Positions 21,326-63,690 of a stretch of 64,000 nucleotides of DNA are shown piece after piece. A model generated the notes under the pieces. That model saw only the letters and a list, made by a program, of their open reading frames with translations. It did not search any database and had not been told where the DNA came from. Source of the stretch: a virus. Position 1 is the stretch's first letter, and each line of letters opens with the position of its first letter. The stretch is taken from positions 89,556 to 153,555 of IMG/VR virus record IMGVR_UViG_3300021963_000034; one strand, 5' to 3'. The position numbers and the translations under genes are program-made.

Positions 21326-23159
21326 ACTACTTGAATTTAGTTTAGATACCGAGAACGCAGAAAAAAATTATATTCTTGCTAAGTGGTATGAAAACGAAGG
21401 TCATACTGCTCCTGCTCATACTTATTATTTGAGGGCAGCAGAAAGAGCAGAAAATGATAATCTTGCATATCAAGCACTCATAAGAGCATCATTCTGTTAT
21501 AAATCACAGGGTTCAAGAGATGGTACAGAAAAAGTTCTTCTTGAGAACGCACTCAATCTTCTTCCACAAAGACCAGAAGCATATTATTTTCTTTCTTTGT
21601 TATATGAAAGAAAACAAGAATGGCAAAATTCTTACACATATGCAAATCTAGGTCTTCAACAAACTATAGACGATGTACTAGATCTTCCAGAGTTCAAAGG
21701 AAAATATCTACTCATCTTCCAGAAAGCAGTTTCTGCTTGGTGGTGGGGAAGAGGAATGGAATCCAGAAAACTTTTTCATTCTTTAGTTGACGATTATTGG
21801 AATGAAATGGATGAAACTCACAAAAGATCAGTAGAAGATAATATAACTCGTCTTGGTTCAGGTCCAGAATCTCAAGCATTTCATACTTACACAAAAGAAG
21901 ATTACTCAAAACTAAGATTTAAGTTTGATAACTCATCCATCATTGAGAGAAACTATTCTCAAGTTTATCAAGATATGTTTATTCTTTCAATGCTCAATGG
22001 AAAAAAGAATGGAACATTCCTTGAGATTGGTGGTGCCGATCCATTTAAGGGTAATAATACTGCTCTACTTGAAAAGACTTTTGGTTGGACTGGTGTTTCT
22101 ATTGAGTATGATGAAAAATTTATAAACAACTATAGAAATAATAGAACTGCAAAACTACTTCATGATAATGCACTGACAATTAATTATGAAAAACTACTAG
22201 AAGAAAACTTTGAAGGAAATATTATTGATTATCTGCAGTTAGATATCGAACCAGCAAAAAATACTTATGAGTGTATGTTGAGAGTTCCTTTTGACAAATA
22301 CAAATTTGCAGTGATTACTTATGAACATGATTATTATGTAGATGTCACAAGATCTTTTCGAGAAAAATCAAGAGAATTTCTAACAAGTAAAGGTTATATT
22401 TTAGTGGCGAATGATTTGTCACCAGATGGAAAGTCTAATTTTGAAGATTGGTGGGTACATCCAGATCTAGTTGATGAAAATATTATCAATAAGATGAAAT
22501 CAATTATTGAAGGGACTCATCATGCAAAAGAATATATTTTAAGTTCATCGGGAGAAGAACCAGATTTTTTTAAATTAAGTGTAAACTCCAAACCAACTTC
22601 TTGGATTGTAGATAATTTTTACGAAAATCCCAATCAAGTTAGAGAGTTTGCACTTAACCAAGATTATGTTGAAGGTGGATTTGGTAGAGGATTTATTGGT
22701 AGGCGCACAGAACAGCAATTTTTATTTCCAGGTCTCAAAGAAAGATTTGAAGAGATTATGGGAAGAAAAATTATTAAGTGGGAAGACTATGGAATGAATG
22801 GTCGTTTTCAAATTGCTTGGTCTGGCGAACCATTAGTATATCACTGCGATAGTCAAAAATGGGGAGGGATGATATATCTTACTCCAGATGCTCCGTATGA
22901 ATGTGGGACTACACTATATGCCCACAAGCAAACAAGAGCAAGAACTTATTTTGATGAAGGATGGGATGCTTCTTGGAAAGATGTTCCTGGAGATTGTCAC
23001 TTAGATGGAACACCATTTGAACCAGTTGATGTTCTTGGAAATGTTTATAACCGTTTAGTTATTTTTGACGCAAGCGCAATTCATTCAGCATCGAAATATT
23101 TTGGAACTGTCAAAGAAAATGCAAGATTTTGGCAAATGTTCTTTTTTGACACTGAGTAG
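21318..23159 (+). CDS. TPR + FkbM-family methyltransferase + 2OG-Fe(II) oxygenase (DUF6445-like) fusion
   Basis: TPR (PQRPEAYYFLS); YSQVYQD...GTFLEIGGADP...IDYLQLDIE; IVDNFYENP...HCD...GMIYLTP...YNRLVIFD...HSA. Confidence 0.75.
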   Translation: MNELLEFSLDTENAEKNYILAKWYENEGHTAPAHTYYLRAAERAENDNLAYQALIRASFCYKSQGSRDGTEKVLLENALNLLPQRPEAYYFLSLLYERKQEWQNSYTYANLGLQQTIDDVLDLPEFKGKYLLIFQKAVSAWWWGRGMESRKLFHSLVDDYWNEMDETHKRSVEDNITRLGSGPESQAFHTYTKEDYSKLRFKFDNSSIIERNYSQVYQDMFILSMLNGKKNGTFLEIGGADPFKGNNTALLEKTFGWTGVSIEYDEKFINNYRNNRTAKLLHDNALTINYEKLLEENFEGNIIDYLQLDIEPAKNTYECMLRVPFDKYKFAVITYEHDYYVDVTRSFREKSREFLTSKGYILVANDLSPDGKSNFEDWWVHPDLVDENIINKMKSIIEGTHHAKEYILSSSGEEPDFFKLSVNSKPTSWIVDNFYENPNQVREFALNQDYVEGGFGRGFIGRRTEQQFLFPGLKERFEEIMGRKIIKWEDYGMNGRFQIAWSGEPLVYHCDSQKWGGMIYLTPDAPYECGTTLYAHKQTRARTYFDEGWDASWKDVPGDCHLDGTPFEPVDVLGNVYNRLVIFDASAIHSASKYFGTVKENARFWQMFFFDTE

Positions 23160-23214
23160 ACACTTCAGAAACTGTCCTAAGACCCTCCAGAATCGCTCTG
23201 GAGGGTCTTATAGT
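23157..23214 (+). promoter_or_regulatory. palindrome-promoter element #1 with a 14-bp stem hairpin
   Basis: TAGACA-cttcagaaac-TGTCCT; taagaccctccaga/tctggagggtctta hairpin; TATAGT 30 bp after the right arm. Confidence 0.7.
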
Positions 23215-23340
23215 ATGCACATACCGCTCAAGACTAATGAGGTATTCCAATTTAGACCGACTTATTTTTGTTGGTTCTTTTTTATGGTTTATTCACTGGA
23301 TTACAAAAGTATCTGAGGTAACACTAAACGCACTATTCTG

Positions 23341-23796
23341 ATGTTTACATTATACACCAGTGGTTACAACTATAGCAAGCGTCGTTGTACTGATGCTACA
23401 AATTGGTTCATTCAAAAGTATCTTCCACGACACAAAATTGAAATCACTGTAAATCATCGTGGTCTCGCAAGAGAAGGAGTTTATGGTTGGTGTAGTGTGG
23501 TTGATTGTAACTATCGCCCTCGTGAGTTTGAGATTGAACTACATAATCAAATGAACTCCGATCTTTATCTCCAGACCCTCTTCCACGAACTCTATCACGT
23601 TTATCAACACGTTATGGGTAATCTGAAGGATAAGCACGGCAAACGTCTCTGGAAGGGCATAGACCATACGGAGACGGACTATTCTGAACAACCTTGGGAA
23701 GTAGAAGCACATCAAGTTGAAGAACAACTCTACAATGAATACCTAGGACTGAATGACTTTGTATATTCTTTCCCTAACCGCTTGACACAACCCTGA
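23341..23796 (+). CDS. putative zinc metallopeptidase (HExxH)
   Basis: TLFHELYHVYQ...PWEVEA. Confidence 0.7.
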   Translation: MFTLYTSGYNYSKRRCTDATNWFIQKYLPRHKIEITVNHRGLAREGVYGWCSVVDCNYRPREFEIELHNQMNSDLYLQTLFHELYHVYQHVMGNLKDKHGKRLWKGIDHTETDYSEQPWEVEAHQVEEQLYNEYLGLNDFVYSFPNRLTQP

Positions 23797-23810
23797 AAAC
23801 TCTGTACAAT
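23782..23810 (+). promoter_or_regulatory. sigma70-type promoter
   Basis: TTGACA-N17-TACAAT upstream of ORF 23835. Confidence 0.75.
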
Positions 23811-23834
23811 GACCTTTGTGGAGGTTGAAAACCT

Positions 23835-24053
23835 ATGAACTCTATGAAAACATCGAAAACTAAAAAACAATTTGTGAATGTGACTCCATTGAGTTCTAAA
23901 GCAAAGAATCGTTTTATAAATCAAATGGATTCTCTACATGCTATGGAAGTAGAGCAGGAAACTGATACTCAACTTTTTGTTGTTTCTATCAATCGTCGCT
24001 ACTGCTTTTGGATTCCAAAAGTTGGTAATGAACATTGGGATATTGTAAAATGA
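23835..24053 (+). CDS. hypothetical protein (paralog of 59226..59414)
   Basis: V.P.S.KAKNRF.N.M...VEQ...F..S.N...FW shared. Confidence 0.65.
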   Translation: MNSMKTSKTKKQFVNVTPLSSKAKNRFINQMDSLHAMEVEQETDTQLFVVSINRRYCFWIPKVGNEHWDIVK

Positions 24054-24361
24054 TTGGATTGATTGCTGGTCTTACATGTGGAATCAGCACTTTTTATGGT
24101 GTTGGTGATGGTTTTCATGGTCAACGTACTGCTAATGGAGAACGTTTTGATGCTTATCGTTGGACTGCTGCTCACCCTTACCTTCCCATGGGAAGTAAAA
24201 TTAGAGTCACAAACCAAGATAACGGAAAACAAGTCATTGTTCGTGTAAATGATCGTGGACCTTATTCTCATGCTGACTTAGATCTATCTTATGCTGCTTT
24301 TGCTCATATTGAATCTGTAAAAAAAGGAAACGCTGTCGTTTGTTGGAGGGTTGTTGGATGA
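24050..24361 (+). CDS. rlpA: RlpA-like lytic transglycosylase (double-psi beta-barrel)
   Basis: FHGQRTANGERFD...TAAHPYLPMGSKIRVTN...VIVRVNDRGPY...LDLS. Confidence 0.85.
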   Translation: MIGLIAGLTCGISTFYGVGDGFHGQRTANGERFDAYRWTAAHPYLPMGSKIRVTNQDNGKQVIVRVNDRGPYSHADLDLSYAAFAHIESVKKGNAVVCWRVVG

Positions 24362-26389: not shown

Positions 26390-26563
26390 ATGCACAATTT
26401 AATTTCTTACAATCAACTTGCTGGGTGGAAAAAAATAGGGAATACGTTAGATGAGTTTATAGACCAGCACGAAATTATGAATTCCTACTTTGAATGTCTG
26501 ACTGAATGTGATGAGGATACACAGAGTTGTAGAAAAATATGTAGAAAACTTTTGACTACATAG
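26390..26563 (+). CDS. small Cys-rich cyanobacteria-like protein
   Basis: GGAGG SD; MHNLISYNQLAGW...YFECLTECD...CRKIC. Confidence 0.65.
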   Translation: MHNLISYNQLAGWKKIGNTLDEFIDQHEIMNSYFECLTECDEDTQSCRKICRKLLTT

Positions 26564-26619
26564 ACTAGTTGAAAATCTGTCCACCTGCCCTTGACTTTCG
26601 CGGTCAAGGGTTTTATAGT
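26561..26619 (+). promoter_or_regulatory. palindrome-promoter element #2
   Basis: TAGACT-N11-TGTCCA; cccttgac/gtcaaggg hairpin; TTGACT-N17-TATAGT. Confidence 0.7.
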
Positions 26620-30045: not shown

Positions 30046-30104
30046 AGGACACTTGAAGAACTGGCACACTCCTCCTTGTGGTGGGGTGTGTTTGGTTGTA
30101 TAAT
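30046..30104 (+). promoter_or_regulatory. palindrome-promoter element #3
   Basis: AGGACA-cttgaagaac-TGGCAC; TATAAT 31 bp downstream; upstream stop lies in the spacer. Confidence 0.75.
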
Positions 30105-31516: not shown

Positions 31517-31575
31517 GGGACACTTGATGAACTGGCACACAGAGGGTTCCACCACCCTCTGTTTCGTTGTATAAT
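31517..31575 (+). promoter_or_regulatory. palindrome-promoter element #4
   Basis: GGGACA-cttgatgaac-TGGCAC; acagagggt/accctctgt hairpin; TATAAT. Confidence 0.75.
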
Positions 31576-32732: not shown

Positions 32733-33569
32733 ATGACTGACCTTAAATTCACATCACCAAGTGGAGAAACTACCCTAAAAGTTGAAGATACTGGTAGAAT
32801 AGGAACAGTAGCACCTAAAACACAACTACACATTAAAATGGATGAACCTGTGAAATACGAAACTCCTATGACTGCGATTGAAGATATTGAGGCACAAATC
32901 AAAGTGCTTCAAAGTAAGTTGGAATTTTATAAGGAGTTGGAACGAACAAAAACTCCTTGCGAAGAAGCATATAAAAGAGTTTATGGTAATTATCCTACGA
33001 CTCATATTACTGATGGATGTTGGGACAGTCCAACTTGGATGCACTTTGTGAATGGATATAAGTCCGCACAAAAGGATTATAAGGTGGGAGAGTTTCAAGA
33101 AACTGTACAAGAACGAGGAGAACGACTTCATAAGGATGTGGAAAGAACTGTTCGTGAGAGTGTGAAATGGTGTGAAGAGCATCCAGATACAGACCCATTA
33201 GATTGGTTGAAACCACAGACACCAGAGCAAACCGAACAATCACTCAAAGAGGCATTTAGAGAGGCACAACAAACGGAAAAGTGGAAAGAACTTCAAAGAA
33301 AGATTGATGAAGAAGATAATGATAAGAACTTCAAGAACTCTCTTGACCTTATCAAAGAATGGGGTGAGAAGAATAAACCACCCACTCTAAAAGAACTCTT
33401 GTGGGAATGGTGGGAAGACATCTTTACTGTGGATGCTGATTTAGATGCTGATGCTTCTATTGATGTTCTTGTAGATATTATTGATAAAAAGTTTATTCCA
33501 CCTTCAAGTGAAAAGAATGGGTATGAATGGGAAAAGTGCTTGAAAATTATGAGGGATAAATTGAGGTAG
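32733..33569 (+). CDS. hypothetical, apparently chimeric protein
   Basis: 278-aa ORF; fibre-like N-terminal peptide followed by acidic helical segments. Confidence 0.55.
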   Translation: MTDLKFTSPSGETTLKVEDTGRIGTVAPKTQLHIKMDEPVKYETPMTAIEDIEAQIKVLQSKLEFYKELERTKTPCEEAYKRVYGNYPTTHITDGCWDSPTWMHFVNGYKSAQKDYKVGEFQETVQERGERLHKDVERTVRESVKWCEEHPDTDPLDWLKPQTPEQTEQSLKEAFREAQQTEKWKELQRKIDEEDNDKNFKNSLDLIKEWGEKNKPPTLKELLWEWWEDIFTVDADLDADASIDVLVDIIDKKFIPPSSEKNGYEWEKCLKIMRDKLR

Positions 33570-33582
33570 TATAAATACAAAT

Positions 33583-33640
33583 GTCTATAGAACCCGCAAT
33601 CTCTACAGATAAGATTAGGTGCTTTAGGGCACCTTTTCTA
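33583..33640 (+). ncRNA. putative late small RNA complementary to the HNH endonuclease leader
   Basis: TATAAATA 33570-77; CTATAGAACCCGCA complementary to TGCGGGTTTAATAG (33654-67); terminator aggtgct-ttag-ggcacct-ttt; second TATAAATA 33642-49. Confidence 0.45.
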
Positions 33641-33674
33641 TTATAAATAGAAGTGCGGGTTTAATAGAATAGAA

Positions 33675-34379
33675 ATGAACTATCTAAAGGTTTATTGTAA
33701 TCTTATCAGGAAAGCAGAGAACAGAACTCCTCCTGAAGGTTATACAGAAAATCACCATACATTTCCAAAAAGTATTTTTGGAAAGAATAATAGAATTGTC
33801 GTGCTTACTGGAAGAGAACATTACATAGCACACGCATTACTTGAAAAAGCATTTATAAAGAGATATGGATTGAATAATATAAAAACGCAAAAAATGATAA
33901 AAGCATTTTGGTGTATGAATAATCAAAAGACAAAAAATACATATTTGAATTCTCATTTATATGAAAGTTCAAGAATAAGATTTATTGAAAATATAAAAGG
34001 AGAAAATCACTACTGGTATGGAAAAAAACATTCCCAAAAAACAAGAGAAAGAATGAAAGAAGCACAAAAAGGTGAAAATCATCCAATGTATGGTAAAACT
34101 CATACTGAAGAGACAAGAGAAAAAATGAGTAAATCTCATTTAGGAAAACCATCATCAAAGGGAATGTTGGGTAAAAAACAAACTGAAGAAGCAAAACAAA
34201 AAATAAGAGAAAGTAAAGAAGTCAAATCTTTTTCAGTAATAAGTCCTACTGGTGAAATAATTCATTCTAAAAATACTAAACAATTTTGTAGAGATAATAA
34301 TTTAGATAAAGGGCACTTTTCTCAAGTTTTGAACGGAAAACGACCAATTCATAAAGGATTTCGTCTCTATACTGGATAA
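33675..34379 (+). CDS. free-standing HNH homing endonuclease with NUMOD3 repeats
   Basis: YTENHHTFPKS...NRIVVLTGREHYIAHALL; GENHYWYGKKHS, GENHPMYGKTHT repeats. Confidence 0.85.
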   Translation: MNYLKVYCNLIRKAENRTPPEGYTENHHTFPKSIFGKNNRIVVLTGREHYIAHALLEKAFIKRYGLNNIKTQKMIKAFWCMNNQKTKNTYLNSHLYESSRIRFIENIKGENHYWYGKKHSQKTRERMKEAQKGENHPMYGKTHTEETREKMSKSHLGKPSSKGMLGKKQTEEAKQKIRESKEVKSFSVISPTGEIIHSKNTKQFCRDNNLDKGHFSQVLNGKRPIHKGFRLYTG

Positions 34380-34437
34380 GGACACTTGAAGAACCGTCAC
34401 AGAGGCACTTGAAAACGGGTGCTCTTTCTGGTATGAT
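34379..34437 (+). promoter_or_regulatory. palindrome-promoter element #5
   Basis: AGGACA-cttgaagaac-CGTCAC; TTGAAA-N17-TATGAT. Confidence 0.75.
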
Positions 34438-36310: not shown

Positions 36311-36365
36311 ACCTAATTTGGTGGTTCTTTTTAGGTTGGGATAAAGCACCTTCGGGTGCTTTTCC
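36311..36365 (+). ncRNA. putative late small RNA complementary to the GIY-YIG-like endonuclease leader
   Basis: AATAAATA 36298-305; CTAATTTGGTGGTT (36313-26) is the exact reverse complement of AACCACCAAATTAG (36381-94); terminator aaagcacc-ttcg-ggtgcttt; second TATAAATA 36368-75. Confidence 0.5.
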
Positions 36366-36403
36366 TGTATAAATACTAATAACCACCAAATTAGAGTAGA
36401 TCT

Positions 36404-37123
36404 ATGAAAGACCCTAACAGGTTTTATACTTACGCATACCTGCGAGAAGATAGAACACCTTACTATGTTGGTAAAGGTGAAGGAAGAAGATTGTATAAAA
36501 AAGGAAAGTGTGAAGTTAAACCTCCAAAAGATAAATCAAGAGTAATCTTTTTAAAAGAAAATCTAACAGAAGAAGAAGCATTTAAGCACGAAATCTATAT
36601 GATTGATGTGCTTGGTAGAAAAGATGTTGGAACTGGAATATTAAGAAATAGAACTAATGGTGGTGATGGATTAAGTGGATATGTTCCCACACCAGAAACT
36701 ATTCTAAAATTAAAAAATAGAGAGTGTAGTGAAAAAACAAGAGAAAAAATAAGAAAATCAAACAAAAAAGTTTGGGAAAATGAAGAATTAAGAAAAAGAA
36801 TGAGTGATATGAAGAAAGGAATACCTATTCCAGAAGAAAGAAAGAAAAAGATTTCTCTGGGGCATATGGGTAAAGTTGTGAGTGAAGAAACAAAACAAAA
36901 ATTGAGAGAGTATAATGTAAAATATTTGTATGAAATAAAAGACACACAAGGGAACATTTACACAACAGATAATCTCAATTATTTCTGTAAAATGAATGGA
37001 CTTGATACTGCTGCGATGCAGAGAGTTTGTTATGGAAAACAAAAATCACACACTCCAAAAAGAAAAGATAGAGTTCCTAATGTAGTGGGGTGGACGGTTC
37101 GCATACTGGAACATATCACTTGA
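36404..37123 (+). CDS. free-standing GIY-YIG-like homing endonuclease with NUMOD3 repeats
   Basis: FYTYAYLREDRTPYYVGKG..RR...EAFKHE...LRNRTNGGDG; SEKTREKI, SEETKQKL repeats. Confidence 0.8.
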   Translation: MKDPNRFYTYAYLREDRTPYYVGKGEGRRLYKKGKCEVKPPKDKSRVIFLKENLTEEEAFKHEIYMIDVLGRKDVGTGILRNRTNGGDGLSGYVPTPETILKLKNRECSEKTREKIRKSNKKVWENEELRKRMSDMKKGIPIPEERKKKISLGHMGKVVSEETKQKLREYNVKYLYEIKDTQGNIYTTDNLNYFCKMNGLDTAAMQRVCYGKQKSHTPKRKDRVPNVVGWTVRILEHIT

Positions 37124-41907: not shown

Positions 41908-42072
41908 ATGACCCTTCCTTCAAAGGGAAACAAAAAACTTACCGATGAAGAGTTTAAAGAGATGACTGCACTTAAAAATGTAATCAATCAACGCCCTGCT
42001 GCTGTAGTTCCTGAGAAGATGGAGCAATTTACTGAGTATCTTGTGCGAAGTTTGAGAGAGAAAGATGGATAA
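41908..42072 (+). CDS. small hypothetical protein
   Basis: GGGAG SD; EMTALKNVINQRPAAVVPEKMEQFTEYLVRSL. Confidence 0.6.
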   Translation: MTLPSKGNKKLTDEEFKEMTALKNVINQRPAAVVPEKMEQFTEYLVRSLREKDG

Positions 42073-42096
42073 TAAATAATTAAAAACTATATATCC

Positions 42097-42237
42097 ATGG
42101 CACAAGAAAAAACACTAAAAATTTCAGCAGTTGCTTATGAAATGTTGCAGGTGATTGCAGAAAAAAATAGACAAAGAGACCCTATAAAATACTTGGAACA
42201 ATTTATAAAACAACAATACAGTCGTATTAGAAACTGA
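42097..42237 (+). CDS. small ribbon-helix-helix-like protein, not in ORF track
   Basis: MAQEKTLKISAVAYEMLQVIAEKNRQRDPIKYLEQFIKQQY; AATAAATA at 42071. Confidence 0.5.
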   Translation: MAQEKTLKISAVAYEMLQVIAEKNRQRDPIKYLEQFIKQQYSRIRN

Positions 42238-42293
42238 AGACACTTTAAAAACTGTCACATGATCCTGCCATTGAGCAGGATTTTTGCTATTCT
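42237..42293 (+). promoter_or_regulatory. palindrome-promoter element #7
   Basis: AAGACA-ctttaaaaac-TGTCAC; atcctgc/gcaggat hairpin; TATTCT 29 bp downstream. Confidence 0.75.
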
Positions 42294-44178: not shown

Positions 44179-44235
44179 GTGACAGTCCTCAAACTGGCAC
44201 AGTGTTTGTTTGATGGACCTTTTTTGATCTATAGT
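44179..44235 (+). promoter_or_regulatory. palindrome-promoter element #8
   Basis: GTGACA-gtcctcaaac-TGGCAC; TATAGT 29 bp downstream. Confidence 0.7.
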
Positions 44236-44257
44236 TACTTTGTTGTCAATCAATCAC

Positions 44258-46540: not shown

Positions 46541-46588
46541 GTAGGTGACACATCATGTCTCAGGTTTCGATCTGAGGCATGATATTCT
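46530..46588 (+). promoter_or_regulatory. palindrome-promoter element #9
   Basis: GTGACA-gttgagtagg-TGACAC; atcatgtctcagg/tctgaggcatgat hairpin; TATTCT. Confidence 0.7.
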
Positions 46589-46609
46589 TTTTTAGTAATC
46601 AACTTCATC

Positions 46610-47494
46610 ATGACTGCCCTCACTACAGAACAATTCAAAGATTACTTTCAAATCAAAGGTAATACAGTCATTCTTTCTCCACAGGTTGCAATGATTGCAA
46701 GTCTTTGTGGGTATGGCGATTTTGATTATCAACCACCATCTAAAGATCAAACCACAGTATCATCCACTCAGTATGACACTGTTTTGATTGATGTTGTAGA
46801 TAAAGACAAGTTTCCAGGTTTTGCTGGTGGGATGCTTCATTCATTTCGATACTTGACTTATGCACTCGACTTCTTGGGTGGCAATGGGACTTTGATTGGC
46901 AAATTTCCATCATTGCTACTCAATAAGGCAATAAATTTTCCAAACTCCGCACATCTCAATTCCAAGGGTCATACAGAATCAATACACCTTTTTGAAGATC
47001 ACTTTTTTATAAAGATTGTAAAAAATACCAGTAACAGAAAGACTACAGTTTTCTATGAAAATGGAAATGAGGTAGAAGTTCAGACTAAGTACCCTATTCT
47101 TCATCACTACAATCAAGAATACTATGATTATCTCCGTAGCGTAGACTTGACAACATCATGTGCCCGAACCACTATTGACGGTAAGGGTGATAAAGTAGCA
47201 GAACAACTTGCTATTCGATCAAAACGAACTGATTTCGATAAAGTTTTGTTTGTTCCCTCCAACGGAAACAAACCTAAAGCATATACTTTTGATGAGGTAA
47301 AAGACAAAAACAGCGGTGGTGATGCTTTCTTTGCGGAATCTGCAGAGCAGCGCGACCAGTACATTAAAATCCTTCAAAATCCTAAAGTTGTAGATCTGAT
47401 CAAGGAAATGTGCTATAATAACTATACTAGCATGAAACTAGATCATAAAAAGTACATCTTCAATGAGCGCATCTTCTCCTTCGCAAATGCTTAA
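46610..47494 (+). CDS. degenerate DNA-methyltransferase-like protein
   Basis: YDTVLID...RYLTYALDFLGGNGTLIGKFPSLL resembles the post-motif-IV region of amino-MTases, but there is no NPPY/DPPY. Confidence 0.35.
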   Translation: MTALTTEQFKDYFQIKGNTVILSPQVAMIASLCGYGDFDYQPPSKDQTTVSSTQYDTVLIDVVDKDKFPGFAGGMLHSFRYLTYALDFLGGNGTLIGKFPSLLLNKAINFPNSAHLNSKGHTESIHLFEDHFFIKIVKNTSNRKTTVFYENGNEVEVQTKYPILHHYNQEYYDYLRSVDLTTSCARTTIDGKGDKVAEQLAIRSKRTDFDKVLFVPSNGNKPKAYTFDEVKDKNSGGDAFFAESAEQRDQYIKILQNPKVVDLIKEMCYNNYTSMKLDHKKYIFNERIFSFANA

Positions 47495-48137
47495 TCCTCT
47501 TCTGAATTTGTTTGTCTCCAGTGATCTTGATGTATCTAATGCTAATGTAAAAGATTTCATTGTTCAACCATGCACAATGAGAGAAATCAAAGAGTTTGTT
47601 GTGCATTGGCATTACTCTCATAATCTTAGAGGTATGATGTGTTCTCATGCCTTCAAGATGACATATCAAGATTCAATCATTGGTGCCATGATTTATGGTA
47701 GACCAGCGATGGCAAACGCATGGAAAAAATATGCGGATGAACAAGACGATTTGTTAGAACTTCGTAGACTTTGTTGTATTGATAATACTCCAAGAAATAC
47801 AGAGTCTTATTTTATTGGTAAGACTTTGCGATGGTTGAAAAAGAATACTAATCTTAAAGTTATTGTATCATATGCAGATCCTCATTATGGACATGCGGGT
47901 ACAATTTATAAAGCATCAAACTTTGAATATCGAGGACAAACTTCTTCAGGAAAGGTAATTTCATACAAAGGAAGACTCTTTCATGATAAGTGTATTCGTG
48001 ATGGAAAGAAAAAAGATGAGAATGGTAATCAAATACTTGATAAGTATGCTATTGAATTGAGAGAAGCATTAAAAACTGGAGAGGCGCAATGGATTGAAAC
48101 TCCAGGTAAGCACATTTATGTTTATGAACTGCGGTGA
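47487..48137 (+). CDS. mom: Mom-family (GNAT) adenine-modification protein
   Basis: WHYSH...IGAMIYG...LELRRLC...PRNTESYFIGKTLRWL...IVSYADP..GH.GTIYKASNF. Confidence 0.8.
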   Translation: MLNPLLNLFVSSDLDVSNANVKDFIVQPCTMREIKEFVVHWHYSHNLRGMMCSHAFKMTYQDSIIGAMIYGRPAMANAWKKYADEQDDLLELRRLCCIDNTPRNTESYFIGKTLRWLKKNTNLKVIVSYADPHYGHAGTIYKASNFEYRGQTSSGKVISYKGRLFHDKCIRDGKKKDENGNQILDKYAIELREALKTGEAQWIETPGKHIYVYELR

Positions 48138-48191
48138 CACTTGAGGAACTGGCACACTGACCCGCACGAGGGACGCCAGATGCAGTATCTT
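48134..48191 (+). promoter_or_regulatory. palindrome-promoter element #10
   Basis: GTGACA-cttgaggaac-TGGCAC; TATCTT 30 bp downstream; mom stop in the left arm. Confidence 0.75.
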
Positions 48192-48249
48192 ATGTTCATG
48201 AGGCACACAGGTTGCCTCAAAACCACACAACCCACTTTTAAGTAGACTC

Positions 48250-48678
48250 ATGGCAACCCGAGCACGAATCGGTATCGAACTCAAAAACGGTTCTGTACTC
48301 TCTGTGTATCACCACTGGAATGGTTATCCCGAATGGTTGGGTCGTATTCTGAATACTCATTACAACACTCGTGCCCTTGCTGCCGAACTGATTGATGGTG
48401 GTGATATGAGTTCCTGCTGGACTGAAGACCGCTGGAACTATGATGAATCATCTTTTAAAGTTGAAGAGTATGGTCCTCAGTATTATGTGCGCGAGAGTGA
48501 TGGAGAGTGTCCTCCTCGCCTTGATGTTGACCTTGCAGAGTATCTGCTCCATGAGAATGGTCAAGAGTATCATTATCTCTTCCGCAATGGTGAATGGGTG
48601 TGCTACAATATGCACGAGTTTGATGATAGCAAACTCCCTGAAGTTGTTGAAATTCCCTCTGCTGCCCTTGCTGTTTGA
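48250..48678 (+). CDS. conserved phage protein (YxHx(D/N)GYP family)
   Basis: MATRARIG...SVYHHWNGYPEWLG. Confidence 0.7.
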   Translation: MATRARIGIELKNGSVLSVYHHWNGYPEWLGRILNTHYNTRALAAELIDGGDMSSCWTEDRWNYDESSFKVEEYGPQYYVRESDGECPPRLDVDLAEYLLHENGQEYHYLFRNGEWVCYNMHEFDDSKLPEVVEIPSAALAV

Positions 48679-52179: not shown

Positions 52180-52256
52180 CAAACTCTACCTATGAGAGCA
52201 GTAAATAAACCTTTTGAATTTGAGTGATAATAAATAACTAAAAAGCATTTGTAGAG

Positions 52257-53864: not shown

Positions 53865-53883
53865 ATTAAAGTTACTTACTAAG

Positions 53884-53941
53884 TGGACACCTTGATAACT
53901 GTCCACTACCACTAAACAAGCACTCAAATCTCCTGTATATT
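53884..53941 (+). promoter_or_regulatory. palindrome-promoter element #11
   Basis: perfect AGTGGACA-N10-TGTCCACT; TATATT 30 bp downstream. Confidence 0.75.
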
Positions 53942-54305: not shown

Positions 54306-54364
54306 AGGACAATTAAACAACTGTCACAAGGGAACTCACATGGTTCCCTTTTTTGCTTTATCAT
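54306..54364 (+). promoter_or_regulatory. palindrome-promoter element #12
   Basis: AGGACA-attaaacaac-TGTCAC; aagggaac/gttccctt hairpin plus T-tract; TATCAT. Confidence 0.75.
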
Positions 54365-54385: not shown

Positions 54386-55282
54386 ATGCAAAACAAGCAC
54401 ATTGAGCATCCAGAAGACACAATCCTGACAGGTGATCTATCTGTGTTGGATTGGATGTATGAACCTGATAGTTTTATCAGCGTCAAGATGGATGGATCTC
54501 CTGCTATTGTGTGGGGTCGTAATCCTGCCAATGGTAAGTTCTTCGTTGGTACTAAATCTGTTTTCAACAAAGTAAAGATTAAGATCAATCATTCTCATGA
54601 AGAAATTGATGCGAACCATGAAGGCAAAGTTGCGACTATTCTTCATGCTTGCTTTGATAGTCTACCTCGCACAAATCGTATCTATCAAGGTGATTTTATT
54701 GGTACTGGCGGGAGTGATACTTATCTCCCCAATACGATCACTTACAAGTTCAATGAGGTGATCGAGCAAAGTGTAATCATTTGTCCTCACACTGAATATA
54801 TCTGTGAGGATGATCTTCGCAATGCTGTTGCATATCCTCTTACCAAACAGTTTGCTGATACTCTTGATGTGAAGTGGGTGCAACCAGAAGCATATATCTG
54901 CCCAGATCGTGAAGATATTGAAGACTTCTGTAAGTTTGCTAAGCAAATGAGCACTCTTTGCACTTTTGTGAATGACAAACAAGCAGCAGAATTGAAAAAA
55001 GTTATCAATTCCTACATTCGTGAGGATAAGGAGGTGGATGAGCATGAAATTGCAGAAAATTATGATGTTGACATTAACTTGATACGATTGTGGAAGTTAG
55101 TTGAGTCTATCAAGATGGATTTGTTTTTCTTCATTGAATCTGACACTGATGTTACTTGTGAGATTGATGGTAAGTTTAGCGATCACGAAGGGTATGTCAT
55201 GACAAACCAACATGGAACTTACAAGATTGTTGATCGCAGTGAGTTTAGTAGATTGAATTTTACAATTCCAAAATCTTGGTAA
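54386..55282 (+). CDS. DUF6267-like protein (KxDG nucleotidyltransferase/ligase-like fold)
   Basis: HIEHPED...SVKMDGSPAIVWG...FVGTKSVFN...YQGDF...HEGYV...KIVDR. Confidence 0.7.
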   Translation: MQNKHIEHPEDTILTGDLSVLDWMYEPDSFISVKMDGSPAIVWGRNPANGKFFVGTKSVFNKVKIKINHSHEEIDANHEGKVATILHACFDSLPRTNRIYQGDFIGTGGSDTYLPNTITYKFNEVIEQSVIICPHTEYICEDDLRNAVAYPLTKQFADTLDVKWVQPEAYICPDREDIEDFCKFAKQMSTLCTFVNDKQAAELKKVINSYIREDKEVDEHEIAENYDVDINLIRLWKLVESIKMDLFFFIESDTDVTCEIDGKFSDHEGYVMTNQHGTYKIVDRSEFSRLNFTIPKSW

Positions 55283-55290: not shown

Positions 55291-55311
55291 ACCACCTTCG
55301 GGTGGTTTTTT
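55291..55311 (+). terminator. intrinsic terminator
   Basis: accacc-ttcg-ggtggt-ttttt, followed by late promoter AATAAATA. Confidence 0.8.
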
Positions 55312-55339
55312 AATAAATACTCAAAAAGTGTTTGTAGAA

Positions 55340-55753: not shown

Positions 55754-55773
55754 TGAAAACATTTAAGGAATGA
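55753..55773 (+). pseudogene. 6-codon remnant MKTFKE* truncated at element #13
   Basis: ATG AAA ACA TTT AAG GAA TGA; coupled to the upstream stop; TGA is the left arm of the element. Confidence 0.45.
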
Positions 55774-55826
55774 CACTTTGAAAACTGTCACATTTCTCTT
55801 CATGACTTTGTGTTTTATGATATAAT
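55770..55826 (+). promoter_or_regulatory. palindrome-promoter element #13
   Basis: ATGACA-ctttgaaaac-TGTCAC; TATAAT 29 bp downstream. Confidence 0.75.
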
Positions 55827-56273: not shown

Positions 56274-56998
56274 TTACCTTTAGAGAGTTCTTAGAATTAG
56301 CAGAAAGTTCTACTGGAGAACGTGGAAAGCGTAGATTAGCACCTAAAGGTCCAAAGGGAAGTAGATATGAAAGAACAGCACAAAGACATGATACTGTTGA
56401 TCGTGTTGCACTAAAAAAAGCAGGTTTTAAGCGTTCTTCTAATCAAGACTATTATCCACAAGATAATGTAACCTCTAGTTCTCCACATCATGACACTGTG
56501 ATTTCCACATATAAAAATCAAAGTGATTTTGCAAAGCATAATGTAAAAGGAAAACTCAAAAATGCAGGAAGAACTGCAACTGGAGCACCAAAGAAAAAAG
56601 TTGTTCCAACAGCAGAAAGAGTTAGACATCTTAAAGCATTAAGAAAACAGTTAGGTGGTGATAGAACATCAAGACAAGTTCATGATGTTTCGATTCATGC
56701 AAAAGATGATCAAGAACATCAAAAGAATGACCCAAAACAGTTAATTTCAAGAGGAAAAAGTTTTAAGAAAGAAGTTAAAGCAGTTCCATCTGCAACTAAA
56801 CAAGTTGGTGGAAAAGCAGGAGACAAAGTAGTAGGTAGACCTGCTGAAGTTCAATCAATGCCTGATAGTATGTCAGCGAGTCAAAAAGTTGCATTAAGAA
56901 AGAAAGGCGCAACAAAACGTGGAAAGATTTACAATAAAGAATTGGGTGGTTCTAAGACAAATCCTAAAACAGGATTAAACATTGGAAATCTTAAGTGA
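56270..56998 (+). CDS. putative internal head protein, very basic
   Basis: MITFREFLELAE; TAAATA at 56246. Confidence 0.6.
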   Translation: MITFREFLELAESSTGERGKRRLAPKGPKGSRYERTAQRHDTVDRVALKKAGFKRSSNQDYYPQDNVTSSSPHHDTVISTYKNQSDFAKHNVKGKLKNAGRTATGAPKKKVVPTAERVRHLKALRKQLGGDRTSRQVHDVSIHAKDDQEHQKNDPKQLISRGKSFKKEVKAVPSATKQVGGKAGDKVVGRPAEVQSMPDSMSASQKVALRKKGATKRGKIYNKELGGSKTNPKTGLNIGNLK

Positions 56999-57051
56999 CA
57001 CTTGAAGAACTGTCACATGGTATGAGCACAGTGCTCTAAATCGTGTATTGT
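56995..57051 (+). promoter_or_regulatory. palindrome-promoter element #14
   Basis: GTGACA-cttgaagaac-TGTCAC; gagcac-a-gtgctc; TATTGT. Confidence 0.8.
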
Positions 57052-57440: not shown

Positions 57441-57499
57441 TGGACAGTCTCTAAACTGTCCACCAGACCTTCCAGAATCGCCCACAGTGCCCTTATACT
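57441..57499 (+). promoter_or_regulatory. palindrome-promoter element #15
   Basis: perfect GGTGGACAG-N8-CTGTCCACC; TATACT. Confidence 0.75.
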
Positions 57500-57631: not shown

Positions 57632-57775
57632 ATGAAGTACGAAGTTCAACTCTACGTTGGTGGTAAAGTCTTTAAGGAAGAGGTTTATGCAAACTCTCCT
57701 AAAGATGCCCGCGAAACTGCGCAAGCACGAAACCCAACTGCAAAGATTGTCGGTGTAAATGGAGTGTTCAAATGA
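57632..57775 (+). CDS. small conserved cyanophage-type protein, not in ORF track
   Basis: MKYEVQLYVGGKVFKEEVYANSPKDARETAQARNPTAKIVGVN. Confidence 0.6.
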   Translation: MKYEVQLYVGGKVFKEEVYANSPKDARETAQARNPTAKIVGVNGVFK

Positions 57776-57929: not shown

Positions 57930-58987
57930 ATGACTTACACTATCACCAAACACATTAAAATTGAACACGATGAAGATGGTTTTAGTTTTGATTTCACTGC
58001 CGATGAGTATGGAACTGTGAGTGTGGAGGATGGTAATGGACCAGGATATCAAACTATTCACATTCCCAAAGATTGTATTCAACACTTTATTGATGTACTG
58101 GAGCAATTCAAATGAACTACCTTTGCTTCGTTGATGGTTTGTTAGAGTTTGCCAGCACTGACCCTTCTTCTTTCGCACACTATCAGTTAGTGTATGCTGA
58201 AGAGCACAAGAACGCTAATGTTCAGTATCTTACTCTAACTGACGAAGAATACGATGAAATGTTCCCTTATGAGGAGGATGAAGAATGACTTTACTTGAAA
58301 CTCTTGATTACTTTCTCACAGAAACAGCAGCAGATTTGGATGGTTTGTCTTGGGAAATCCGTGAGGAAACTAACTACGAAGACAATAATGTAGATGGTTT
58401 GAGTGAGATTTATGACTTCAATAAAGAACTTTATGATAATCTCAAACAAATCAAATCTATCATTGAGAATGTGAAATGAGTAGCACAATCCCTGACACTG
58501 AAATGACTTATGATGAACAAATCAAAGAAATGACTGTCACAAAGTCTCTCAAACTTCTGCGTGATGGGTTCAAGAATGAACTTGCCACTGCTCTATTCGC
58601 AGATGAGCGCACAACTGAACTCTTTGCCCAACTGATTAGTGAGTTTGTAGAGACAAACATTCCTGTGGTTGATGATGAGAACCAGATGGAACTTTCGATG
58701 ATGCTGTTGGAAACTCTTGACATTGTAGCACGATGACTTACTCTAACCTCTCAAAGATTCGCCCGAAGTTGAGGACAACTGGGCGTGTGTCGGGTAACTT
58801 TGGAAAGAATCGTGTGCAGGCAGGTTCATCACTCAATGAAATCGGTGGTGATGGTAACATAGGTGCTACACAGAATGAGTATCTAAATCGACTGTATTAT
58901 GCTTTTGATAACACTACCGACCCTAAACTTCGTCACTTCATTTATACTGAAATCAAAAAGATTCTCATTCAGCAAGGTAAATGGTGA
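57930..58987 (+). other. coupled small hypothetical ORFs (57930, 58112, 58285, 58476, 58733)
   Basis: ATGA overlaps. Confidence 0.65.
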
Positions 58988-59040
58988 CAGTTGAGGAACT
59001 GGCACACTAAATCTCCACGGTGTCAGTTTTCCTGTATTCT
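58984..59040 (+). promoter_or_regulatory. palindrome-promoter element #16
   Basis: GTGACA-gttgaggaac-TGGCAC; TATTCT. Confidence 0.8.
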
Positions 59041-60038
59041 ATAAGAGTCAAAGGATTTCAACCATGATCACTGACACCACACAAGATGCACAGATGCGTC
59101 GATCAATCAAAAACGCAATTCTGAACACTGATCTTCAAACTCTTCAACGTGTTGCTTATGAACAACAGTGTGAAATGTTTGGTTTGAATCCTGATTCTTG
59201 GAAACTATTTCCTGAGGAATGAACAATGAACACCGCATTTGTCTCTCCAAAATCTAAGAAAGCAAAAAACCGATTCTGTAACTTGATGCAATCCGAATCG
59301 GAGTGTATTGTTGAACAAAACAAAGGTGATCGTGTATTTTTGCGTTCACTGAATGGAAAAAACTTTTTCTGGGTTAATCTCAACAACGATTCTGATTGGA
59401 GCATTGAACTGTGACTGAAACTCAAGAACAACTGATTCGCAACATTGAACAACAACTTGAAAATCTAATGTTGTTGGATGAAGATCTTGCATGGGAGTAT
59501 GAATCTGCATTGTATTATGATTGCAATGATGATGAAGAACCACAACCCATTGTAGAAAACTTCACTCCTGAACTTCTATCTGAACTTGAAAAAGTTGTTT
59601 ATGACCGCGACAGCACAACTAAAACCATGAAACTCTACATTCTCAAAGAAGTTCTTTACGATTACACTGACGGCATGTGTATCATTGCTGCAGAATCTAT
59701 GCCTCAATGTGAACAGATTTTTATGGAAGAGTTTGGGTATTTTACTGATTGTAATGGTGAGAGAATAAAGGATGAAAAAACACAAAAAGAGTTCAACAAT
59801 GCCAAGGTGACTATTATTGAAAGTGTAGGACTTGATGAAGCAGGTATTGTTGAATATGTGTACGGTGGAGGTTAATTCAATGACTGATTATGGTTTTTAT
59901 TCTGTAGAAGAACTCACCGAACTTGATGATTCTGATTTATCTTTTGAGATTGCAGATACAGCACTGTTAAAGACACCAGAAGCAGATGAGTATTTGAATC
60001 AACTTATCAAAGAATTGCAGCGTCGAAACTGATAGCAT

Positions 60039-60082
60039 GTGACACAAGTACAAGTGGCACAGTGCTCAAAATCCTGTATTCT
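60039..60082 (+). promoter_or_regulatory. palindrome-promoter element #17 (13-bp internal deletion)
   Basis: GTGACA-caagtacaag-TGGCAC; TATTCT only 16 bp downstream. Confidence 0.7.
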
Positions 60083-60107
60083 TAAAGAGTCAAAGCAATT
60101 CAAGCAA

Positions 60108-60461
60108 ATGACTACCACTTTCGCTGATCAAGTTGCTCAACAAGATGCAAAGAACAGCATCCAACTTAACATTGTTAAGTATGGTCTGATGTTGTGTGAT
60201 GCACTGCAACAAGATGCTCCTAGTGGGTATCATTATTCTTTAGATTCTTCTGGTCGTAAGTATCACAAAGTGTTCATGCACATTGGTGATCGTCGTGACA
60301 GTATTCATGCTTTTATTGATAAGAAGACTGGTGGTGTGTATAAACCAGCAACTGTAAAAGCACCTGCAAAGATTGAAAGATTTAATCTTCTTCTGATTAA
60401 AGATCGTGAGTGGTTGTTTGAGAACGCAACTTGGCACGGTGGTTATCTCTATCTCCGCTGA
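60108..60461 (+). CDS. conserved phage protein
   Basis: GRKYHKV...SIHAFIDKKTGGVYKPATVKAPAK...WHGGYLY. Confidence 0.65.
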   Translation: MTTTFADQVAQQDAKNSIQLNIVKYGLMLCDALQQDAPSGYHYSLDSSGRKYHKVFMHIGDRRDSIHAFIDKKTGGVYKPATVKAPAKIERFNLLLIKDREWLFENATWHGGYLYLR

Positions 60462-60469: not shown

Positions 60470-60532
60470 GACTGTGTGCCAGTTCGATTTCTGGCACACA
60501 GTCCTCCCAAAGCACTCAAAATCATGTATTCT
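60470..60532 (+). promoter_or_regulatory. palindrome-promoter element #18 (13-8-13 perfect inverted repeat)
   Basis: GACTGTGTGCCAG-ttcgattt-CTGGCACACAGTC; TATTCT. Confidence 0.8.
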
Positions 60533-60557
60533 TAAGAAGTTCAAGGGATCGCACCCA

Positions 60558-61621
60558 ATGATCGAGTTTCCTACACTTCAGTCAAAGGATGGAACAATGC
60601 TCGTGGGATTTTATCCCATTGAAGATTGCTCCACTCACATTCTCAAGATTCTTTCTTGGAAAGGTGTTGATACAATCTCTCAGAAGTGCATCAGCAAGAA
60701 AGATGCAATCCGCGAGATTGATGAGAGAATCGCACTTGATTATGTCATCACTGGTGACAACATTGGTCTGGTTCAAGAGTACAACTTTATGCAAGGTGCA
60801 GTTTGATGACTAAAACCACTCTCACTTTTGAAGAACTGGATGCACTTCTGGCAGTTCTTGAATCTAGCGATTGGATTTACTTGACTGAACTTACAGAAGC
60901 AGACATTCCTGCTCTGTATGATAAACTCACTGAAATGAGGGATGAAGTCTGATGCAATTCCAAGTTACTGACATTGAGTTTGATTTCACTGGTGCTGAAG
61001 ATGAAATCTCTGTAGAAGAGATGAACGCAATCACTGAAGAAACAATCGGTCAGATTGTAGAAGCAGATGATGAAGAAGATCTAGTCGAAGAGATTACATC
61101 TTGGACTGGTTGGTGCATTAAGTCCATTGATTTCCGTCACATTCTGAAATGACTATTTCTCCTGAAAAGCAACGACAAATCGAAGAAAGTGTAGGGTTAA
61201 TTGGTGAAGCATTTGGTGCATTGATTGGTGGTCTAATTGCCGCTGCAATCATCGCAGGTGTGATGTATGCAATTCTCCACTTTTTGATTGGTTTGACGAT
61301 CACCTATTGGCAGGTATTTGGTGTGATTCTAATTCTTCATTACATCAAAAACTTTCTGAATAAATGATTTCTCTTCCTAACTTCACAAACAAAATGGAAC
61401 TTACTCAAGACCAATACGATAAACTGCTTGCACTCTACATCGAGTCGATTGTTGATGGTATGGACCTCGACTGTTTGGTACAATTTGCAAGTGAAACGAT
61501 TGAAGAGAATCTCCGCGAAACTTGCTCTGCACCTGATGAATTGATTGAAGAGATTTCACGCTTTTATGATGAAGAATATGTGAACGATATGATTGAAAGT
61601 GTAGTAAATGTAGACAGTTGA
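60558..61621 (+). other. coupled small hypothetical ORFs (60558, 60806, 60952, 61149, 61364)
   Basis: overlapping start/stop codons; several acidic. Confidence 0.65.
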
Positions 61622-61668
61622 GGAACTGGCACAAGGTCAGTAGCAACCACACCAAGATCCTGTATTCT
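61611..61668 (+). promoter_or_regulatory. palindrome-promoter element #19
   Basis: TAGACA-gttgaggaac-TGGCAC; TATTCT. Confidence 0.8.
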
Positions 61669-62028
61669 TAAGAAGTTCAAGGAACACCACTCAATGACTG
61701 ACATTACCAGCATCAAAGAGTTTTTCACAAATGAAGAATGGTATGCAATTTATGATGCAATGAGTGAGTTTCAAGATCATGGTGATGATGAAGCAGAATT
61801 GACTGATTCTGTGCAATCTAAAATCTCCAAACTGTTTCTGAACTGAATCATGCGTAGTTACTCTCCTGCTTGTGACATTGAAACGAAACAACTTGTTTGG
61901 AGTTGTTTTATGTTTGGTAAACAACTTGCACATAAGGACAAACCACAAGTTCATGATTCTGTGTTTCTTTCAGGTCTCTATTCAAGACGTTATGATGATG
62001 AAGTAAAGACTCCTACATTCTGATTCTT

Positions 62029-62444: not shown

Positions 62445-62501
62445 GTGCCAATTCAAGTTCTGTCACAATCAATCACCACATTGCACAAAATCATATATTG
62501 T
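62445..62501 (+). promoter_or_regulatory. palindrome-promoter element #20
   Basis: GTGCCA-attcaagttc-TGTCAC; TATTGT. Confidence 0.75.
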
Positions 62502-62524
62502 ATTGATGTATTGATCATTCTTTG

Positions 62525-62992
62525 ATGATGACAAGAAGAAATGTTTGGTTAAAGTATGATGAATGGGAATCAATTTGTCAAGAACTTTCTCATGTAAAGT
62601 ATCATCCATTTGAACTTTCTAAAATGCAATTAAAAGAATGGAAGGATAGAATGAAGAAGTATCCCGAATCTTTTGATTCTTATTGTTTTGAGAGAGTGAG
62701 TATCTATTCTGTAGTTGAAGAATTGAAAAGTTCTAAACTGCAAAATGTTTTGTATAAAGAATACTATCGTTCTCAAGATATAATGGATGCAATGTCTTTT
62801 AATTGTACTTTTGCTGGATTTATTCTTAATCATGCAGAGAACGTGAATGAGAATACTACAACTGAAGAATGGGAGTCAAATAGAATTAAATTGGATAAAT
62901 GTATGAATGATAGTGATAAAAAAAGATGGTTTTGTGATGACATTGTAAAACTCTATGAAGAGCAGTGTGCCAATCATCAAACCGTCCACTAA
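62525..62992 (+). CDS. hypothetical protein (single-gene cassette)
   Basis: lies between elements #20 and #21; AT-rich. Confidence 0.6.
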   Translation: MMTRRNVWLKYDEWESICQELSHVKYHPFELSKMQLKEWKDRMKKYPESFDSYCFERVSIYSVVEELKSSKLQNVLYKEYYRSQDIMDAMSFNCTFAGFILNHAENVNENTTTEEWESNRIKLDKCMNDSDKKRWFCDDIVKLYEEQCANHQTVH

Positions 62993-63023
62993 ATCAACCA
63001 CTGGTGTCTAGAACCTGTATTCT
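62967..63023 (+). promoter_or_regulatory. palindrome-promoter element #21
   Basis: GTGCCA-atcatcaaac-CGTCCA; TATTCT. Confidence 0.7.
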
Positions 63024-63047
63024 TAAGAAGTTCAAGGGATTCTTCAA

Positions 63048-63627
63048 ATGACTTTCCAAGACGCACTGATCGCAACAGGTTATTTCTTTCAACCTGAATG
63101 TGGTGCATTTTGCAAGGAAGATTGCAACTGGAATCTTCATTCTTATGTTGAACAAACTGAAGGTACTTGGTCGTATGAAAAGTATGATCAAGATGGTCAA
63201 TTTGTGACTTCCAAAGTATTCTCTCTGAACTGATTATGAACTACTACAAAGTCACCCAAATTGAGTTTGATTTTGACTATGAAGATCTCACTGAAGAAGA
63301 ACAAAATGAGATCATTTCAGAAGCAACAAATTGTCTTTGGACTTCACCAACTGAAGAAGATCTAACAAATACAATTAGTGACAACATGGGTTGGTGCATT
63401 AAGTCTCTTCAATATGACATCATCCATGCTTAATTTCTGTTTGTTTGCATCTATTGTTCTTCGTTTTCACTTTCATCATGCTTGAACTTCTCATTGCTTC
63501 TACGATCATTGGTTCTACTGAAATTGCGCCAAATGTATTACAAATTGAGTATCTTACACCAAACAATTCAGTTGTAACTATTCTTGATAATGTTGAAATT
63601 AAAGGAGGACAAATAGACAATGATTGA
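63048..63627 (+). other. three small ORFs (63048, 63236, 63478)
   Basis: 63236 is a paralog of 60952. Confidence 0.6.
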
Positions 63628-63633
63628 AACTAA

Positions 63634-63690
63634 GTGCCAGTTGAAGAACTGTCACAATAAATGAGCACAGTGCTCAAAATGATGTATTCT
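63634..63690 (+). promoter_or_regulatory. palindrome-promoter element #22
   Basis: GTGCCA-gttgaagaac-TGTCAC; gagcac-a-gtgctc; TATTCT. Confidence 0.8.

Follow-up and report, generated by a model that had tools for sequence, protein, structure and literature searches.

The final 64 kb (positions 89,556 to 153,555) of the IMG/VR virus contig IMGVR_UViG_3300021963_000034 carry 22 co-oriented copies of a 22-bp dyad, GTGMCAGTT-N4-AACTGKCAC. We refer to this 64,000-nucleotide stretch as the window, and the copies lie between its positions 23157 and 63690. We describe here the anatomy, conservation, and orientation of these elements, as well as their look-alikes in host genomes. The repeats are very probably early-class promoter cassettes of an uncultured T4-like cyanophage, in which the dyad would be read by a dimeric factor that is present before infection. 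T4-like cyanophages are among the most abundant viruses of lakes and oceans, and to our knowledge the MotA/AsiA switch of T4 is absent from them. Promoters of this kind are already known, and the window adds one more divergent lineage to their record.

The exact pattern GTGMCA-N10-TGKCAC has 8 matches against 0.01 expected, and 21 matches against 7.05 expected when up to two mismatches are allowed. We built a weight matrix from the 22 sites listed in an initial annotation of this DNA and scanned it over the whole 153.5-kb contig. All strong matches fell at the listed coordinates, with one extra copy. The observation of 22 co-oriented copies is confirmed. The 23rd copy lies at contig positions 34166 to 34225, outside the window and within the first 89 kb of the contig, and its hairpin and -10 are nearly identical to those of copy 5 (window 34379). 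Matches at 38568 and 39727 are intragenic and lack a -10, and we excluded them from the count. The structural module (window positions 1 to 23000) holds no site scoring above 10.8, which bears out the earlier remark that the element is missing from the late genes. The symmetry, 9-bp arms around a 4-nt center, is longer than first described. Positions G3 and C5 are invariant, and A6, T8, T9, A14, A15, C16, T17, G18, and C20 are nearly so. The dyad is weak in the copies at 26561 (degenerate), 37091, and 62967, and the spacing is aberrant at 60039. The elements, with their weight-matrix scores where noted, are as follows.

23157-23214, + strand: element 1, TAGACA..TGTCCT over the stop codon of the 613-aa gene; hairpin of -22.3 kcal/mol; -10 TATAGT at a distance of 30; score 21.7
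26561-26619, + strand: element 2, degenerate dyad, a weak copy; hairpin; -10 TATAGT; best -35-like sequence TTGACT; score below 10
30046-30104, + strand: element 3, dyad; hairpin; -10 TATAAT; score 30.5
31517-31575, + strand: element 4, dyad; hairpin; -10 TATAAT; score 30.1
34379-34437, + strand: element 5, dyad; hairpin; -10 TATGAT; score 28.4; downstream half nearly identical to the copy at contig 34166
37091-37148, + strand: element 6, weak dyad with 6 of 9 arm mismatches; -10 TATGAT; score 17.2; heads a run of about 22 small genes
42237-42293, + strand: element 7, in the promoter position of the helicase gene at 42315-43535; score 26.1
44179-44235, + strand: element 8, left border of a variable block (760-aa, 294-aa, and Mom-like proteins); homology with relatives ends at 44201-44210
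46530-46588, + strand: element 9, dyad; terminator-like hairpin with a 14-bp stem, -17.7 kcal/mol; -10 TATTCT
48134-48191, + strand: element 10, right border of the variable block; homology resumes at 48179-48250; score 31.9
53884-53941, + strand: element 11, TGGACA..TGTCCA variant; -10 TATATT; score 19.3
54306-54364, + strand: element 12, dyad; terminator-like hairpin; -10 TATCAT; precedes the DUF6267 gene
55770-55826, + strand: element 13, dyad; -10 TATAAT; score 27.0
56995-57051, + strand: element 14, near-perfect dyad GTGACACTTGAAGAACTGTCAC; score 31.8
57441-57499, + strand: element 15, TGGACA..TGTCCA variant; -10 TATACT; score 17.4; next called open reading frame (ORF) at 57632
58984-59040, + strand: element 16, dyad; -10 TATTCT; leader TATTCTATAAGAGTCAAAG, also in Syn9
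60039-60082, + strand: element 17, atypical, with the dyad 16 nt before -10 TATTCT; TATTCTATAAGAGTCAAAG-type leader family
60476-60532, + strand: element 18, GTGCCA..TGGCAC; -10 TATTCT; TATTCTATAAGAGTCAAAG-type leader family
61611-61668, + strand: element 19, dyad; -10 TATTCT; TATTCTATAAGAGTCAAAG-type leader family; score 28.4
62445-62499, + strand: element 20, dyad; -10 TATATT or TATTGT
62967-63023, + strand: element 21, weak dyad; -10 TATTCT; TATTCTATAAGAGTCAAAG-type leader family; score 15.0
63634-63690, + strand: element 22, near-perfect dyad; -10 TATTCT; TATTCTATAAGAGTCAAAG-type leader family; score 30.2

The geometry downstream of the dyad is rigid. A TATNNT hexamer starts 29 to 31 nt past the right arm in 20 of the 22 copies. 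The earlier count of 21 stands for these 20 and extends to the copy at 62445 (offset 27 nt) only if its hexamer is read as TATTGT (offset 29); the copy at 60039, at 16 nt, departs from it. Spacer hairpins of -9 to -22 kcal/mol occur in 10 copies, where a T-rich stretch links the hairpin to the -10, and the other 12 spacers have none, in line with the earlier estimate of about half. The -35 had been called often absent, and the best -35 match indeed averages 3.3 of 6 positions and reaches 5 of 6 in two copies only; a scan with the sigma-70 consensus gave 58 sites against 57.6 in shuffles, which is no excess. An ORF begins 18 to 29 nt after the -10 in most copies, where the initial annotation had about 20 to 40 bp, and the core TTGA[AGT]GAA is present in exactly eight, as that annotation had it. 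Upstream, the dyad adjoins or overlaps the stop codon of the preceding gene. Each unit stands at the start of an operon with 1 to about 22 small genes, in the region syntenic with Syn9 gp55 to gp93.

Six window copies (16 to 19, 21, and 22) and Syn9 have the leader TATTCTATAAGAGTCAAAG in common, so that conservation reaches beyond the promoter into the 5' untranslated region. The -10 and leader read TATTCT(T/A)(A/T)AAGAGT(C/T)(A/G)AAG at 59035-59065, 60077-60110, 60527-60560, 61663-61695, 63018-63050, and 63685-63720, and the same block is found near 48610 and 53050 of Syn9 (NC_008296). Most of the element-free spacers, indeed nearly every one, have a TATAAATA late-type box instead. Boxes of the T4 late-promoter type, (T/A)ATAAATA, stand in dyad-free spacers at about 33560-33650, 36360-36380, 42065-42085, 52220-52240, and 55300-55320, within an otherwise early-type region.

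The contig itself is linear and estimated to be 72% complete. We assign it to an uncultured, divergent, Kyanoviridae-like T4-like cyanophage because of its tail-protein matches and its Syn9-like gene order. The tail protein, encoded outside the window, is 48% identical to those of Synechococcus phages B3 and B23 and 30 to 40% identical to those of many Kyanoviridae, and Syn9 gp52 to gp93 share its order of endonuclease V/minor coat, small genes, helicase, and again small genes. Megablast against cultured phages gave a single 800-bp match, to S-SRM01. All called genes of the window lie on the + strand. Its first 23 kb hold large structural-type genes (baseplate-like, fiber-like, a glycosyltransferase, and a 613-aa protein whose terminal part matches minor coat protein and endonuclease V families). 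From 23 kb on there are about 120 small ORFs, few of them with a recognizable family. The genes to which we refer below are the following.

33675-34379 and 36404-37123, + strand: two free-standing homing-endonuclease-like genes (NUMOD3; phrog_314/HNH)
42315-43535, + strand: helicase gene (family match)
47463-48137, + strand: Mom-like protein gene (PF25680, E = 2e-36)
54386-55282, + strand: DUF6267 protein gene (family match)

The element is widespread among relatives of this phage. Copies of its core are enriched in the genomes of Syn9, B23, and S-SRM01 and lie there in clusters, and in Syn9 the complete arrangement of dyad, spacer of about 30 nt, -10, and leader precedes gp55, gp61, gp68, gp73, the helicase gp75, and gp89/90. 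The exact 22-mer is present in more than 120 IMG/VR contigs, where 79 of 86 sites have TAnnnT 26 to 33 nt away on at least one side (mode 30), compared with 20% per side in controls. Orientation was examined in 138 related loci (58 around the helicase and 80 around the DUF6267 gene; 1.35 Mb), in which 277 of 298 dyads read on the gene strand are followed by a -10 at 27 to 32 nt, whereas the opposite-strand reading gives 45 of 214. Geometry, this orientation bias, and the sharing with Syn9 all argue for the promoter with a dimeric-factor site near -52 that was first proposed, and we regard that role as well supported by the comparative evidence. A 2016 study by Doron et al. reportedly found a novel regulatory element, abundant among T4-like cyanophages, to control early genes in Syn9 and P-TIM40; the window elements are most likely that same early-gene element.

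Several related and unrelated occurrences deserve mention. In relatives at about 61% identity (L045, L050, L052-L064, L067), the helicase is driven by a different unit that has no upstream dyad; a lone half-site-like word (AAAGTGTCC or AACTGCAC) stands about 1 to 3 nt before the -10 (TATAGTAT). The phage promoter and leader are also present in full on two short contigs (L115 and L154; RFNU01000045.1 and RFNU01000194.1, 'MAG: bacterium isolate LLD_282 Lanier'), which look like cyanophage DNA mis-binned into a bacterial metagenome-assembled genome (MAG). The 22-mer pattern also occurs many times in one Allosphingosinicella MAG (DASYKV01 contigs: L082, L105, L117, L119, L121, and others), often as tandem pairs 23 bp apart, and once per genome in many Acidobacteriaceae; these are probably unrelated repeat or operator families.

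We propose the following mechanism; that the elements act as promoters, that they do so early, and which factor reads them are inferred. The two-fold symmetric site GTGMCAGTT-N4-AACTGKCAC would be a protein-binding site spanning about -64 to -43, with its center near -53. About 30 bp of spacer would separate it from the -10 box TAT(A/T)NT, and in about half of the copies this spacer would hold the intrinsic-terminator hairpin of the upstream transcription unit; a 20- to 30-nt leader would then precede the start codon. The -10 stands at a rigid distance from a symmetric site while the -35 is weak or absent, a layout that fits a pre-existing dimeric activator: host RNA polymerase would depend on a dimeric factor bound at the dyad, and that factor would already be in the cell when the phage DNA enters. 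The units would be promoters that travel with their downstream genes rather than dedicated recombination sites. The best candidate for the reader would be the host GntR-family protein PlmA (the PMM1637 homologue), because its target yfr2/Cyano-1 promoters use the same 9-mers.

When 185,579 species genomes were searched for the phage 22-mer, 105 stretches came up, and about 12 of the 80 listed among them were cyanobacterial loci. A Cyano-1 (RF01701, Yfr2-type) RNA starts 42 to 43 nt past the dyad in 5 of 11 cyanobacterial loci checked. Among 30 Cyano-1 genes taken from 151 cyanobacterial genomes by top Rfam score alone, 12 have a dyad (score at least 13.6) that ends 40 to 42 nt before the RNA, with a -10 28 to 30 nt past the dyad, and the dyad/-10/RNA layout of these 12 promoters is the phage geometry. 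Four small genomes in the phylum sample yielded no Cyano-1. Picocyanobacteria have the same 9-mers in everted form, AACTGKCAC-N-GTGMCAGTT: the exact everted site occurs once each in 8 of 41 picocyanobacterial genomes, with zero control matches, and all eight sites lie just upstream of a Cyano-1 gene. The everted site fits CGRE1, whose sequence we rebuilt from genomes. CGRE1 has been described as a palindromic element of 21 to 22 nt, flanked by GTTG and its inverse and found nowhere else in the MED4 genome (PMC6191309; PMC6778093), and at the yfr2 promoters of marine picocyanobacteria it is bound by PMM1637/PlmA, a GntR protein, in pull-down and electrophoretic mobility shift assays (Lambrecht et al. 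2018, PMC6191309). Picocyanobacteria and Nostocales share 78 to 79% identity in the PlmA-type winged-helix domain, and its recognition stretch is the same in both. PlmA is the sole GntR-type factor in three picocyanobacterial genomes checked. PlmA is also a partner of the PII-PipX nitrogen/carbon signaling complex.

Related layouts turned up beside these sites. At three Nostocales loci (L076, L077, and L112), sequences below the Rfam Cyano-1 threshold are preceded by an exact dyad that has a -10 at a distance of about 30 nt, a hint that the dyad regulon of filamentous cyanobacteria is larger than yfr2. In high-G+C picocyanobacteria the inverted layout is degenerate and its arms contain GTCC, which recalls phage copies 11 and 15.

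How far does this evidence carry the case for PlmA? We hold the identification of host PlmA as the reader of the phage dyad only tentatively, at somewhat less than an even chance, and the remaining probability falls to another pre-existing host factor or to a virion-delivered protein. We rejected a phage-encoded GntR reader for this contig (72% complete), on which no GntR gene lies. Generalist T4-like cyanophages express their early genes even in resistant strains (PMC6708340), which fits a universally conserved host reader without proving one. Several points weigh on the other side, both for PlmA and for the promoter reading as a whole. The one site at which binding by PlmA has been shown is the everted CGRE1 of Prochlorococcus MED4. 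In the phage, the half-sites are inverted with a 4-nt gap, and their center lies about 5 to 6 bp closer to the start than in CGRE1. In the 41 picocyanobacterial genomes, the likely hosts, the strict inverted core yields 3 sites in 2 genomes against 3 control matches; it is thus almost absent from the likely host group, and the phage layout is no plain copy of its own host's site. A phage protein delivered with the virion could read the dyad instead. The promoter role in the window phage is deduced from sequence comparison, and our equation of the elements with the 2016 motif draws on the abstract of that study together with the Syn9 scan made here.

Two of the three inverted picocyanobacterial sites lie in low-G+C stretches and have a full phage-type promoter. 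In a single picocyanobacterial genome, two phage-type dyad promoters (L361 and L362; G188:C1:114044 and 128297) are separated by 14 kb and lie in stretches of 47 to 54% G+C. These two promoters may belong to an island of phage origin or may be extra PlmA-type targets.

A symmetric site suits any dimeric DNA-binding protein, and the dyad might be an operator through which a phage-encoded repressor shuts off the early promoters, a common operator being well suited to coordinated shut-off. The dyad, however, is set farther upstream than the -35 position and clear of the core promoter, the weakness of the -35 points to activator dependence, and host small-RNA genes that have the same site in the same position are induced through it rather than repressed (PMC6191309). 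We consider the operator improbable, although repressor and activator roles could coexist and an operator would not be exclusive. Less probable still is that the dyad works as RNA, a hairpin at the end of the upstream message that serves as a 3' stabilizer, processing site, or terminator. It does stand at the 3' end of the upstream gene, and perfect copies could fold into a 9-bp stem with a 4-nt loop, but the arms average 3 mismatches of 9 and the same site is found upstream of host small-RNA starts. About half of the copies already have a separate G+C-rich hairpin downstream. The initial annotation had the arms co-varying to keep their symmetry; we find no symmetric column pair that is complementary above the prediction from column frequencies (all p > 0.17). 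What is conserved is particular bases, with G3 and C5 invariant, and not pairing. An Rfam scan of the window at gathering thresholds gave no match, and the elements are therefore not a known RNA family.

The remaining alternative is that the elements are recombination linkers, PeSL-like (promoter/stem-loop) or integron-like, at which cassettes are exchanged, possibly via excised mini-circles. Some borders do fall at elements. The block 44201-48179 is replaced in many relatives, with homology stopping just past the 44179 dyad and resuming at the 48134 promoter, and many homology blocks begin at 42235-42250, 53880-53897, and 54302. Upstream of the helicase (element 7), some relatives keep the right half-site, spacer, and -10, while the left half differs and changes with the upstream gene, from which it follows that promoters move with their downstream genes and that junctions can fall inside the dyad. 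We chained collinear BLAST blocks in 102 relatives (IMG/VR and a metagenome scan) and counted as an event any pair of neighboring blocks split by an indel or replacement. The closest relatives share about 80% DNA identity, with best protein identities of about 86 to 89%, and at that distance recent indel events are not resolvable. The 428 events reveal an extremely mosaic region. Element junctions make up 16% of junctions yet take 33% of junction breakpoints; event ends nonetheless fall at 8 of 11 other spacers of at least 40 bp and at 50 of 85 tight junctions, among which ATGA overlaps are frequent, as they do at 13 of 18 element junctions, and about 20% of ends are intragenic. The element junctions do not differ from the other spacers of at least 40 bp (p = 0.84) or from all non-element junctions (p = 0.15), and the first data set agrees. 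PF00589, the tyrosine recombinase family that was to be sought on the rest of the contig, has no match on these 153.5 kb (72% complete), whereas 14 of 14 control genomes match, and we rejected a phage-encoded integrase for the contig. Integron cassettes, moreover, differ from these units, each of which has a promoter of its own. Neither a general exchange boundary at the element nor the integron-like array of the initial annotation is supported; dedicated recombination linkers are an unlikely account, while the elements may still act as passive, PeSL-like stretches of short recombination homology.

The block between elements 8 and 10 (44240-48137) encodes 760-aa and 294-aa proteins without a family match and the Mom-like protein, and in most relatives 0.7 to 3.2 kb of different DNA takes its place. 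The block may serve in DNA modification as a module. Upstream of each homing-endonuclease-like gene, a hairpin and a TATAAATA late-type box stand in place of a dyad promoter, and the 5' part of the second gene has two or three separate matches within single relatives (L055/L058/L060, L035). These two genes are an independent source of mosaicism.

Two consequences follow from the analysis. A gene-cassette or integron picture is unnecessary, genes coming and going at almost any junction in this lineage, and the search for the early-promoter reader is narrowed to one named host protein. It is possible, if still short of probable, that T4-like cyanophages start infection by offering host PlmA a rearranged yfr2 promoter site; in that case, how strongly early phage genes are transcribed would be coupled to the light and nitrogen state of the host. 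In the literature accessible to us we found no published description of the Nostocales-type yfr2 dyad, and in the literature searched we found no paper that connects cyanophage promoters to PlmA, CGRE1, or the promoters of Yfr2. The match of the phage element to Yfr2 promoters and the candidacy of PlmA go beyond that accessible literature.

Among known systems, the early element of Doron et al. stands closest: like the window elements, it reportedly occurs in T4-like cyanophages before small early-region genes and is abundant and conserved, and the difference lies in the phage, the contig representing an uncultured, distant lineage. CGRE1 is alike in its 9-mers (GTGMCAGTT/AACTGKCAC), its length of 21 to 22 nt, its palindromy, its place upstream of a promoter with a -10, and its confinement to a few promoters per genome. 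It is, however, everted around a 1-nt center where the phage dyad is inverted around 4 nt, and it ends 49 to 51 nt before the start of the RNA model where the phage dyad ends 40 to 42 nt before the start. The yfr2/Cyano-1 promoters outside picocyanobacteria (for example, in Nostocales) have the phage-identical layout, with dyads like GTGACACTTCGACAAGTGACAC or GTGCAACTTGAAAAAGTGTCAC, a 28- to 30-nt spacer, a -10, and an RNA start 40 to 42 nt past the dyad; they are host chromosomal promoters that drive a small RNA, in organisms not known as hosts of this phage family.

The PeSLs of RB49/phi1 and other T4-type phages are likewise repeated units of early promoter and terminator hairpin, the hairpin sometimes within the promoter, set between small orphan genes of a hyperplastic region. 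They have a full sigma-70 -35/-10 pair and an AT-rich upstream part without a dyad, whereas the window units have a dyad and a weak -35; a PeSL-type stem-loop is found in 10 of the 22 window spacers, and the strong sigma-70 pair is missing. Recombination and mini-circles have been shown experimentally for PeSLs (Arbiol et al. 2010, PMC2839356), while the window breakpoints have no specific enrichment at elements over other spacers. Integrons, finally, have an IntI tyrosine recombinase beside the array, of which the window contig yielded none, and carry promoterless cassettes behind one common promoter, where each window unit has a -10 of its own. Their attC sites are conserved in structure; the window dyad is conserved in sequence, without compensatory change.

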